64,000 nucleotides of DNA from Dehalococcoidia bacterium (GTDB lineage: Bacteria > Chloroflexota > Dehalococcoidia > Lucifugimonadales > JADFKI01), in contig OZ242018.1 of NCBI GenBank assembly GCA_965204855.1, forward strand, positions 304,185 to 368,184. Direction: 5' to 3'. Positions 3,531 through 9,217 of this stretch are shown in pieces; the stretch's first letter is position 1, and each line of letters begins with the position of its first letter. Made by a program: the position numbers and the translations under genes. The notes under the pieces were generated by a model. The model saw nothing but the letters and a program-made list of their open reading frames with translations, was not told where the DNA came from and did not search any database.

Positions 3531-5029
3531 CGGATGACCCCCATTGCGCCGTCGCCCGGGCAGTCGTCGCTCTTTCTCCCGTCTGGACAGACCGTATCGC
3601 GCCACTCGGCATCACGTGTGCCCGAAACCCTGGCAAAGTCCGCGCCCGTAAGGTCTGTCCGAACGAACTTCGCGTTCCTCACCTCCGAGCCGTTGAGAAA
3701 GGCGTCTTCAAGCTTCGCGTCGGTGAAGTCCGCGTTACGCAGGTCGGCATTTCGAATCTTTGCATCCTCCAGTCGCGCCCCGACGAACACCGATCGCTGC
3801 AGGTCGGCGCCGTCGAACAACACGTCCAGCAGGACGGCATCCGTGAATTCGGCCCGAACCAGCCTGGCTTGAGTGAAGTCGATACTTCTGAGCGTCATGC
3901 CGGCATAGATCGTCTCCCGCAGGTTCGCCTGGCTGAAGTCGGTCGTCTTGTCGAAGACGACTCGTGTCATGTTAGCTTCCTTCAGGTTGGCCTCACCCAA
4001 GTTGGCCCCGGTAAAGTCCGTATCGGTGAGGTTGGCGTCCTCGAAGTTCACTCGCCGGAGCGAAGCCCCGTTGAAATTAACCCGATAGAGCGTGGCTGAG
4101 ACAAAGGAAGCTCCATCTAGGACCGTGCCTTCGCCAAACCTGCTGCGGGACAGGTCCGTCCCATAGAAGCTAACATCGATCAGCAGAGCCTCAGCCGGCC
4201 AAGTCGTGTTGTGCATGATCGCCCTGTCGAAAGAGACCACGCGGGACAAGTCGGCGCTACTCAGATCCACGTTCGACAGGTTCACCTGGTCCAGGATAGC
4301 GCCCGATAGAGACGCCTCCTTAAGAATTGCGCCTTTCAGGTTCGCCTTTCTGAGGTCGGCGTTCGCCAAGTTTGCGCCGGTCAGGTCAAGCCTCCGTAAG
4401 TCTCGCCCTGAGAAGTCGCAGCCGACCAGCTGAGCGCCCGGCGCGGGAGTGCAGGGCGGAGGTGTCTTCGTGGGCGTCGGCGTGATGGTAGGCGTGGATG
4501 TAGCAGTGGCAGTTCCCGTCGCGGTTGCAGTGCCTGTTGCCGTTGGGGTAGGCGTAGCTGTCGGAGTCGCGGTAGGCGTTGCGGTGGATGTTCTGGTAGG
4601 TGTAGCCGTCCCTGTCGCCGTGGGCGTTCTGGTCGGAGTTGCAGTAAATGTCGCGGTTGCCGTCGCCGTGGGAGTCGCGGTGGGTGTGCTGGTGGGTGTC
4701 GGAGTTATGGTCGGGGTGTGGGTTCTGGTCGCCCAGATTATTCCGTAGGCCGTCGCCGTGGTGTGCGGAGTGAAAGTAGGCGAGGGGACTGGAGTTTCCG
4801 CTGGGGACGGCGTTGAGTGCTCCAGGACCGCCTCGTCGTCCGCGTCCGCCATTCCTTTCTCTTCGACTTGCACGGCCAACCCATTTGCCACAGATTCCTC
4901 GGATGCTACTCCACCGTCCGAACCTCCGAGGAACTGGCAGCCGAGCGAGGGCAGCAGGAGAAGGGCAATAAGCAGCCCCGCGCCAAGCAGTCCTGCCCGG
5001 ACTCCGGAGCTGGCAGGACCTGAAATCAC
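3527..5029 (-). CDS. Exported pentapeptide-repeat protein with Thr/Pro-rich linker
   Basis: Long run of A(D/N)LxX pentapeptides ([28 protein letters not shown]...). N-terminal hydrophobic segment [18 protein letters not shown]. The start was re-derived as GTG at 5029, with GGAGGAG 9 nt upstream and a GTGA overlap with the stop of the upstream ORF. The track start 5128 would overlap that ORF by about 100 nt. Confidence 0.8.
4449..4748 (-). repeat. Low-complexity (TPTA/TGTA)n coding repeat inside the pentapeptide-repeat gene
   Basis: Translated as [32 protein letters not shown]... on the minus strand. The mirror plus-strand ORF (VGVAVGV...) is an artefact. Confidence 0.8.
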
Positions 5030-5520
5030 TGCTGGTTCTCCTCCACTATCCTCGCCTGGCAGAAGCTGAATGCCATTCCAATGTACGCCTCGAAGCTGCC
5101 ATACTGTCCGGCCTCGAGCGCCTCCCACATCCTACGTTCCGACTCCGTGATTTCACGCTCGATAACCTCCTTGGGCAGGTTCGGATTGAGATAGGTTCGA
5201 GCCGTGCAGTCGGCCATCCAGCGGACTATCTCCAGTTCGTTCTCACTGGCATCTTTCCTAGCCAGCGTGTATTGAGCCACGGAACCCTGACTGTTTGTCG
5301 ACGAACCTCCACTTGCGCGGTCTTTTTTCGCTTGGGCGACGATATAGTCCTGAAAGCTCTTCATCTGCTCTTCCAGCGCCGCGATCCGCTCGCTGTCCGA
5401 GCGCCCATTTGCCGACGAACTCTCGTCATCGTCACCGCAGGCCGCGAGAACCAGAAGCGCGGCGATAAGCGCGGTGCCCAGATGCAGCTTAATCCCCGGC
5501 ATTAAGCGCAGCATCGTCAT
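5026..5520 (-). CDS. Lipoprotein
   Basis: Signal peptide with lipobox LVLAAC|GDDD. ATG at 5520 is preceded by GGAGGAG (4-nt spacer). The gene overlaps the rpoB 3' end by 32 nt. Confidence 0.7.
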
Positions 5521-8500: not shown

Positions 8501-9217
8501 TTGAAAGAGCGCCTCGTCACGGCTCCGGCAATCGCCTGCCGCGAGGGTGTTGCGGATGAATCGCCTGCTCGGATCGGTGTCCGCATTGCTGAAGGCATCG
8601 AGCAGTTCGTCGTCGGTCTCCAGGCCGAACAATCGCAGGACTGTCAGCGCGCTCAGGCTGCTTCCATTGTTTAGCCTGACGCGCAGTTGGTCGCGCTCGT
8701 TCGTCTCGAAGCCGATCCAGGAACCGCGAGCGGGAATGATGCGTCCTCTTCCCAGCCGATGCCCGGAAACAGGCTCGCGGTCGAAGCCGAACCAGACGCC
8801 GGGGGCGCGTACTATCTGGTGAATGACGACTCGCCGCACTCCATTGATGATGAAGCTACCTGAAAGATCCATCACGGGAACCCGGCACAGGAGGAGGCGC
8901 TGCTCGATTATCTCGCTGCTGTTTGTGTTCGTCAGTGTCGCTCTGACCGTCACCTGTGCGTCGTATGTCAGGCCTTCTGCGACACACTCTGAGGGGCTGC
9001 GCTCACGCGGTTCCAGCTCGGGCTGGTCGAGGCTCAGCGAGAAGCGGCCGGACGCATCGCTTATGTCGGCCATTTCGCTGAGGGACTGGGCGATGCCGCT
9101 CTCCAGAAACTGGCGGTACGAGTCCAACCGGAGCGACAGTAGTCCTGGCTGTGCCGTTGGCGCTTTCAGCCTGCCGTACCGACGTACCGGTAGGGTTGAT
9201 GTGATTTTGGGCGTCAT
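5489..9217 (-). CDS. rpoB: DNA-directed RNA polymerase beta subunit
   Basis: 1242 aa with the hallmark blocks [68 protein letters not shown] and [27 protein letters not shown]. Confidence 0.95.
   Translation of the reverse strand: [1242 protein letters not shown]

Follow-up and report, generated by a model that had tools for sequence, protein, structure and literature searches.

Why does a chromosome of the Dehalococcoidia carry a full-length rpoB that has no rpoC beside it and is joined instead to genes for two predicted lipoproteins? We address this question for a 64-kb window of DNA (C1:304185-368184) from the genome G000, which is assembled as a single contig of 3.26 Mb; positions given without the prefix C1 are those of the window. 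Bacteria are generally taken to have one RNA polymerase (RNAP) core, and the exceptions known to us are rpoB duplicates in actinomycetes that differ mainly by resistance-type substitutions. We report that the rpoB gene in the window, here referred to as beta-par, is not the housekeeping gene, and our preferred reading (with a probability of roughly 0.6) is that it encodes a functional alternative beta subunit that would make a second RNAP isoform. The genes in question are:

5489-9217, minus strand: rpoB paralogue (beta-par), 1242 aa, identified on the basis of Pfam, NCBIfam, tree and alignment
5026-5520, minus strand: lipoprotein, 164 aa, lipobox LAAC, overlapping the 3' end of rpoB by 32 nt
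3527-5029, minus strand: pentapeptide-repeat lipoprotein, approximately 500 aa (PF00805, 175 vs 20 bits)

A canonical rpoB (C1:214065-217649; 1631 bits on TIGR02013) is located on the same contig, approximately 92 kb from beta-par, and the genome's sole rpoC (C1:218071-221922) comes immediately after this canonical gene. Because this higher-scoring gene adjoins the sole rpoC, the rpoB in the window is a paralogue; it is not the single rpoB next to rpoC that a housekeeping orthologue would be. The original prediction, made from the sequence of the window, had correctly noted that rpoC is missing from the 64 kb, and had offered two explanations, a lineage-specific break-up of rpoBC or an accessory rpoB on an accessory replicon. 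The adjacent pair at C1:214065-221922 rules out the former. Of the latter, the accessory copy stands but the replicon finds no support, since beta-par is part of the same 3.26-Mb contig, in an island with plasmid-like par and helicase-loader genes. The proposed search of the assembly for rpoC and more rpoB copies returned one rpoC and one further rpoB, i.e. the canonical pair. It had also been suggested that a single rpoB, in an arrangement shared by close relatives, would make the locus a lineage feature; the arrangement is indeed shared by relatives, as an extra multi-copy cassette, but the rpoB is not single. The genome has one rpoA and one rpoC, and among the core subunits checked (rpoA, rpoB and rpoC) only beta is duplicated. 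Beta-par is 46-47% identical to the canonical RpoB of its own genome, and is as far from the host's own beta as the beta subunits of different phyla are from each other.

The gene is intact, and the earlier description of a 1242-aa RpoB with all hallmark blocks holds. Six of six bacterial beta-subunit Pfam domains are matched and the protein scores above both NCBIfam rpoB equivalog cut-offs (NF001616, 1155 vs 896 bits; TIGR02013, 1136 vs 801 bits). There are 196 alignment columns that are invariant in 33 canonical RpoBs ranging from Bacteroidota to Chloroflexota; beta-par keeps 168 of these, and 151 are kept in all 13 paralogues of the alignment. The active-centre motifs are complete in beta-par and intact in all 30 family sequences, and the RpoB insertion specific to Dehalococcoidia is also present. 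The pairwise ratio of nonsynonymous to synonymous substitution rates (dN/dS) is 0.10-0.27 for beta-par vs 0.065-0.13 for the canonical rpoB of the same genomes, and therefore beta-par is under purifying selection, as a constrained, fast-evolving and not a decaying gene. For the genomes G000 and G001 the path in the tree is approximately seven times longer for the paralogue than for the canonical gene (0.20 vs 0.03), and the paralogue dN is about three times the canonical dN. The GC content is 0.62 (0.73 at third codon positions, GC3), and for the canonical rpoB 0.61 (GC3 0.80).

That we are dealing with a non-functional duplicate, a contamination or an assembly artefact is hardly credible. One decayed copy does exist, in the genome G013 (locus L115, C44:10972-13117), where a beta-par fragment, 84% identical over residues 1-717, has TAG and TGA stops, is truncated near residue 717 and lacks the lipoprotein, pentapeptide, ParA and DnaC-like genes of the cassette; the 'contamination' scores of the genus genomes (5-10%) point the same way. 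Against this stand the single-contig assemblies, the recurrence of the cassette in metagenome contigs and in no fewer than 8 independent genomes, the dN/dS values, the catalytic motifs intact in 30 of 30 sequences and a GC content close to that of the canonical copy of the host (0.62 vs 0.61).

In our survey of 22 genomes of the host genus, intact extra rpoB copies, one to three each, are present in eight (one in G000, G008, G014 and G021, two in G001 and G015, at least two in G018 and three in G002). A search of 5.8 billion proteins gave metagenomic members in three identity ranges (75-100%, 57-65% and 50-56%), below which canonical RpoBs appeared, at no more than 47%. In maximum-likelihood trees with 13 and then 30 paralogue rows, the paralogues form one (starred) clade with a stem of 1.95 and 1.34 substitutions/site, respectively, which branches off where the base of the Dehalococcoidia RpoB radiation is unresolved; the window copy is placed apart from the canonical RpoB of its host genus. 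An approximately unbiased (AU) test rejects a grouping of the paralogue family with the canonical RpoB clade of the host genus (log-likelihood difference 35.9, p = 0.015; subject to long-branch effects), and together with the tree it rejects a recent duplication within the genus. As judged from these trees the beta-par family is a distinct monophyletic group of at least 30 sequences within the Dehalococcoidia radiation. Among the sampled carriers the branching of subclade A largely matches the canonical tree, suggesting that the family has been chromosomal for a long time and has undergone duplications and losses, and subclades A and B are co-resident in G002, G015 and G018.

The nearest named RpoB sequences to the window copy are from Dehalococcoidia (Chloroflexota), and the sister of the genus's canonical clade in the tree is a protein labelled 'SAR202 cluster bacterium'. 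A cassette copy is also carried by the metagenome contig MKWU01000925.1, and since the MKWU assembly is a metagenome of the sponge Aplysina aerophoba (PMC5649159, PMC5099237) the lineage includes sponge symbionts. Our search of the literature on rpoB paralogues outside actinomycetes, in SAR202 or in sponge Chloroflexota found nothing relevant; this is an rpoB paralogue family of a few Dehalococcoidia lineages near SAR202-labelled proteins for which we found no published description.

Most documented cases of accessory rpoB genes are from Nocardia, Nonomuraea and Actinomadura, where one copy usually has recognised resistance substitutions (PMC5431353; PMC12337354), and a survey found more than one rpoB in 91 of 18,127 species, mostly belonging to these three genera (PMC12337354). 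As for Nonomuraea rpoB(R) and Nocardia farcinica rpoB2 (PMC5431353), the second rpoB described here is present in addition to a housekeeping rpoB-rpoC pair, beta alone is duplicated, the rifampicin (Rif) region is changed and two RNAP isoforms would share the other subunits; for the actinomycete paralogues a global kinetic or 'stringent-like' effect has been proposed (PMC5431353; PMC12337354). The principle of an extra beta and two isoforms is shared, whereas resistance alleles, divergence, origin, copy number and operon context differ. Specifically, the actinomycete paralogues have H526N and S531Y while beta-par keeps H526 and is without resistant alleles; it is no within-genus duplicate, given its 46-47% identity to the host copy and its own deep clade in the Dehalococcoidia radiation; as many as three extra copies occur, each within a fixed operon that also encodes two lipoproteins and is part of a cassette with par and helicase-loader genes; and the host belongs to Chloroflexota, not Actinomycetota.

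The changes that set the family apart were defined as those present in all 30 sequences, or in nearly all at a few positions (E. coli numbering where available):

Rif cluster I: canonical SQLSQFMDQTNP, family SKLCQ[VT]xDETNP (Q510K, S512C, F514V/L/T, M515V/T, Q517E)
Rif cluster I: canonical HKRRLSALGPGG, family HKRRV[TS]SLGPGG (I530V, S531T, A532S)
Fork loop 2: canonical AGFDVRD, family AGVDPRD (F545V, V547P)
Rif cluster II: canonical TPEGPN, family TPEGQN (P567Q)
Switch-3 segment: canonical GGKAQFGGQR, family GGKS[AV]GGGQR (no E. coli numbering)

YGK is also among the family replacements of universal RpoB motifs, and STGPYS is changed to STGTYS in subclades A and B. The flap has an insertion of 3-6 residues, and the sequence around the flap-tip helix is rewritten with the hydrophobic positions mostly kept. 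In a sliding window the family is disproportionately variable relative to canonical RpoB at residues 321-460, 741-860 (up to 17-fold) and 1101-1200. The canonical RpoB of the host keeps the universal sequence at the sites altered in the family.

The Rif region of beta-par had been read correctly beforehand (S512C, S522A and S531T, with Q513, D516 and H526 kept), and we cross-checked its numbering by the wild-type gaps in an E. coli mutant table. The resistance to rifampicin that such changes might imply is not supported by the published E. coli mutagenesis data. These data cover all single substitutions at positions 510-537 and 563-572 (Source Data Fig. 2a; PMC10550828) and were decoded as index = (position - 510) x 21 + alphabetical residue; decoding and numbering are valid because the wild-type row is missing at every position checked. 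None of the Rif-pocket substitutions of beta-par is enriched in rifampicin (Q510K, -0.58; S512C, -0.18; F514L, -2.27; F514V, -1.75; M515V, -0.58; Q517E, -1.12; I530V, -0.57; S531T, -0.80; A532S, -1.14), while substitutions at D516, which serve as internal control, score about +0.8 to +2.9. Moreover, position 514 is a rifampicin-hypersensitive site in E. coli (PMC10550828), and beta-par keeps D516 and H526 and has Thr at position 531, hence neither H526N nor S531Y. A rifampicin-resistant paralogue is disfavoured, no substitution having scored as resistant in this extrapolation from single substitutions in a distant enzyme.

In E. coli 567Q gives resistance to bicyclomycin and 5-fluorouracil (5FU), and it occurs naturally in Epsilonproteobacteria and Aquificae (PMC10550828); substitutions at F514 are likewise 5FU-resistant in the scan (+1.3 to +1.9). 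The family thus resembles natural kinetic variants of the Rif site in having P567Q together with F514 substitutions of the same 5FU-resistant sign, and by analogy these changes would fit a tuning of polymerase properties and not of drug binding. Unlike in Epsilonproteobacteria and Aquificae, where the residue is part of the sole housekeeping rpoB, P567Q is here found in a paralogue with many other changes, and the E. coli data refer to single substitutions. By extrapolation, what the changes in the cleft suggest is a polymerase that behaves differently and not one that resists rifampicin.

The same changes could be explained by target replacement, with beta-par as a spare beta that is insensitive to an RNAP inhibitor in the sponge holobiont and sustains transcription while the housekeeping beta is blocked, as for actinomycete rpoB(R)/rpoB2. 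Candidate inhibitors are small molecules (for example a rifamycin, sorangicin, streptolydigin or a compound of the lipiarmycin type) and proteins of phages or competitors that target the flap or the cleft; fork loop 2 and switch 3 are presumably the streptolydigin and lipiarmycin sites. Such a role is in keeping with the fixed changes in the Rif pocket (510, 512, 514, 515, 517 and 530-532), fork loop 2, the switch-3 segment and the flap, with altered regions that are 4-38 times more variable in the family than in canonical RpoB, with defence islands as neighbours and with the precedent in Nonomuraea and Nocardia (PMC5431353; PMC12337354). We nevertheless regard it as unlikely: in the scan of 760 E. 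coli mutants (PMC10550828) no Rif-pocket substitution is enriched in rifampicin and F514 changes are hypersensitive, H526 and D516 are kept with no H526N or S531Y, there is no biosynthetic cluster near beta-par, and the two lipoproteins are left unexplained. By extrapolation, the E. coli data would lower the probability of resistance without eliminating it.

With respect to the genes downstream, the original description proved accurate: the lipoprotein gene starts with ATG at 5520 within the 3' end of rpoB and has its Shine-Dalgarno sequence in CGGCCGGAGGAGTCGT, and the pentapeptide gene starts with GTG at 5029, overlapping the TGA stop at 5026-5028 and preceded by GGAGGAG. These gene overlaps within the trio are conserved across copies, and beta-par is predicted to be the first gene of a three-gene operon of translationally coupled, co-expressed genes. 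The lipobox Cys and two further Cys are invariant in the alignment of the lipoprotein, which has no family match in Pfam, NCBIfam or PADLOC. Its AlphaFold2 model has a mean predicted local distance difference test (pLDDT) value of 68, the confidently modelled part being a C-terminal helical bundle, and had no PDB match at E ≤ 0.001. Among 1.84 billion cluster representatives no more than 19 relatives turned up, and among 401 genomes of the order (145 genera) the lipoprotein is essentially confined to the host genus. The pentapeptide protein begins with a signal peptide that carries a lipobox Cys; a long Thr/Pro-rich linker leads to a beta-helix, and the C terminus bears the motif CPDG..SDDC. 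The protein falls outside the Qnr/MfpA-type topoisomerase protectors, which are cytoplasmic and about 200 aa long, in view of its low scores (Qnr, 61 vs 240 bits; MfpA, 54 vs 360 bits) and its predicted export. The host chromosome also has three further pentapeptide-repeat paralogues that are 34-40% identical (C1:2562801-2563697, C1:1387498-1388640 and C1:2523969-2525207), i.e. the organism has a whole gene family for surface proteins of this kind.

Homologues of the lipoprotein and then the pentapeptide protein follow beta-par in every family locus examined, including L139, L140 and L141, which are the deepest members examined (RpoB 50-56% identical). No rpoC, ParA or DnaC-like gene is present after the trio in these three loci, where the neighbours include genes for a LexA-like repressor, a DnaG-type primase, thymidylate kinase, DnaB, RNase H and HU. 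Because the trio is kept there without ParA and DnaC-like genes, beta-par, the lipoprotein and the pentapeptide lipoprotein constitute the conserved core of the system.

Within the host genus the trio is part of a larger cassette, in which parA, an open reading frame (ORF) of 89 codons and the gene for a tandem DnaC-like loader on one strand are convergent with the three genes above. All six of these genes are shared with the window by 12 of 12 full-length paralogue loci of relatives. The cassette is 8.3 kb long, with DNA homology to other copies from approximately 1000 to 9285, and has the following features in addition to the trio:

998-1188, plus strand: left edge of the cassette and parA promoter/operator region; homology to the closest copies starts at approximately 998-1081
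1189-1872, plus strand: ParA-type partition ATPase, 227 aa (Pfam CbiA, AAA_31 and MipZ)
1869-2138, plus strand: 89-aa ORF, ATGA overlap with parA, conserved in paralogue loci
2163-3530, plus strand: tandem (double AAA+) DnaC/IstB-like helicase-loader paralogue, 455 aa
9218-9285, minus strand: upstream segment forming the right edge of the cassette, 65 conserved nt, promoter-like site TTGAAA-N18-TATCGT at 9253-9224

The ParA-type operon (1189-3530) had been recognised before as one flank of beta-par. ParA is present in all 12 full paralogue loci with no other copy in the genome; it has three Pfam matches above threshold and scores 120 bits on NCBIfam ParA_partition (NF041546; cut-off 180). The 89-aa ORF has no family match in Pfam, NCBIfam or PADLOC, and is presumed to be the centromere-binding partner of ParA. 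A seventh conserved ORF beyond parA was dismissed as an antisense shadow of parA. The DnaC-like protein matches IstB_IS21 in two stretches (106 bits) and PRK08116 (190 vs a 189-bit cut-off), and is 43% identical to the core copy (C1:2291796-2293181); in the 22 genus genomes extra DnaC-like copies occur only where beta-par occurs. The core dnaC2 itself is a fused tandem double-AAA+ DnaC/DnaI-like gene (product of approximately 460 aa), present as one copy in each of the 22 genomes and located in an rplI-dnaB-227aa-dnaC2 locus (C1:2289744-2293181 in G000).

The left edge has AT-rich palindromes, three TTCACTCTCCAAAAT-like repeats and a promoter-like site at 1082-1111. The right edge was defined from ten copies, all subclade-A loci and including the window and the G013 remnant, and is sharp: sequence past AATTAGAAC is unrelated. 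In the ten aligned copies a promoter scan gave a promoter-like TTGAC[G/A]-N18-TATCGT that ends 6 nt before the ATG of beta-par, and there is no Shine-Dalgarno sequence before this ATG; the beta-par mRNA is thus probably leaderless. The dnaC-like and pentapeptide genes are convergent and share 4 nt at their 3' ends (3527-3530), and because no terminator-like site was found between them the two operons of the cassette may collide transcriptionally. The identity along the cassette is mosaic (86% to locus L109 at 3542-4759, 74% in rpoB), a pattern that indicates recombination between cassette copies.

The cassette is accessory, with one to three copies per chromosome, and its islands abound in insertion sequence (IS) elements and defence genes. 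From copy to copy the flanks show no relationship; they include transposases of three Pfam families, restriction-type genes and DnaE2. An HU gene is loosely associated with the cassette, being upstream of beta-par in L106, L113 and L114 and nearby in L140; in the window it is found beyond the right edge:

13069-13452, minus strand: HU paralogue (PF00216), 47% identical to the core HU (C1:1715370-1715669)

No match was obtained with PADLOC for beta-par, the two lipoproteins or ParA, and the ATPase matched only generic AAA+. In an IMG/VR scan with beta-par only giant-virus RPB2 was found, at 27% identity, and the lipoprotein profile had no match. Likewise, tblastn against PLSDB and phage records gave no family member, only chromosomal-type rpoB at about 50% identity or less, i.e. 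chromosomal rpoB in records filed as plasmids or phages. A viral or plasmid origin was rejected, as none of these collections holds a family member. A tblastx search for an empty site at guessed colinear coordinates in G007 and G003 found nothing.

Mobile elements can encode copies of host nucleoid or replication proteins, for instance the helicase loaders and H-NS/HU-like proteins of plasmids. With a diverged helicase loader, HU and a ParA system, the cassette together with its island is similar in this respect; unlike for those elements, we found no described plasmid or phage with a bacterial-type beta subunit of the beta-par kind. One could propose that the cassette serves as the core by which an integrated plasmid-like element is maintained, and that beta-par redirects host RNAP to promoters of the element or to primer synthesis at its origin, together with ParA and the DnaC-like loader. 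Second copies of replication or partition genes always adjoin the trio (within the genus these are ParA and DnaC-like, whereas L139-L141 have an AAA_25 protein, a DnaG-type primase or a DnaB helicase), copy number varies, identities are mosaic and contexts differ, and the DnaC-like and HU paralogues have diverged from the host copies about as much as beta-par from rpoB. We judge a polymerase dedicated to such an element to be quite improbable, in view of the missing relatives in IMG/VR, PLSDB and phage records, the lack of any detected Rep gene, integrase or att-like repeats, and the congruence of subclade A with the canonical tree, which suggests long residence in the chromosome; moreover, ParA and the DnaC-like gene are absent from deep family members and are hence not core partners.

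We therefore return to beta-par as an alternative beta subunit. Given one rpoA, one rpoC and one housekeeping rpoB, beta-par would most likely compete with the housekeeping beta for the same alpha2/beta'/omega set and so give a second RNAP core isoform. This isoform would keep the catalytic centre while the RNA-DNA hybrid cleft (Rif pocket, fork loop 2 and switch-3 region) and the flap are altered, with altered kinetics of initiation, elongation or termination and altered binding of regulators as the expected consequence, and without rifampicin resistance. The cassette itself may go back to an integrative or plasmid-like element that encodes diverged counterparts of the host's informational proteins.

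Several points weigh against this reading. Assembly with beta' is predicted from the conserved C-terminal region and the catalytic motifs only; no gene for a sigma factor or any other RNAP partner is present in the cassette; the predicted kinetics are extrapolated from E. coli proteins with one substitution each to a distant relative with many changes at once; and long-branch effects could inflate the deep placement of the family in the tree. In addition, the case for a mobile-element origin is circumstantial, neither an integrase nor terminal repeats nor a free form of the replicon having been found, and the reading does not account for the link of a cytoplasmic beta subunit with two exported lipoproteins. 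As a tentative proposal for this link, beta-par and the two surface lipoproteins might be one functional system on a duplicating cassette, in which a fast-evolving second RNAP isoform serves conflict with phages and mobile elements or an envelope-linked programme; examples would be a polymerase that escapes RNAP shut-off by a phage or competitor together with co-expressed surface exclusion proteins, or a polymerase dedicated to the island. If true, this would be a new class of accessory transcription machinery in bacteria.

Beta-par combines purifying selection with systematic remodelling of the nucleic-acid cleft and the flap, and with up to three extra copies per chromosome. Provided that it assembles into RNAP, it is a natural experiment in which the Rif pocket, fork loop 2, switch 3 and the flap are changed with catalysis kept, and it raises the question of the role of an accessory RNAP isoform in uncultured sponge symbionts.

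Turning to the remainder of the window and its surroundings, the lower-GC islet described beforehand contains a CdnC-NucC cyclic oligonucleotide-based antiphage signalling system (CBASS) at 10927-12460, between the cassette edge and the HU gene (PADLOC matches: cyclase PDLC00803, E = 6.5e-75; NucC-type nuclease PDLC00745, E = 1.2e-81), which is absent from the syntenic locus in G021. The 30 kb to the left of the cassette (window -30000 to 955, 274-305 kb of the genome) have the look of a variable island with many large unassigned ORFs, with ORFs that are transposase-like as judged by their N-termini and with a DUF4238 protein ending at 955. The dnaN gene is located at 14597-15778. The AT skew changes sign at approximately 44-48 kb of the window, where the cumulative GC skew flattens and 46001-48000 reaches 69% GC; 44000-48000 may be a replication origin or terminus region. 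Finally, CheckM-type 'contamination' is 5-10% for single-contig genomes of the genus, to which duplicated markers, rpoB among them, may contribute; rpoB serves as a single-copy marker, and the paralogues probably inflate such estimates and can mislead rpoB-based taxonomy of these genomes.

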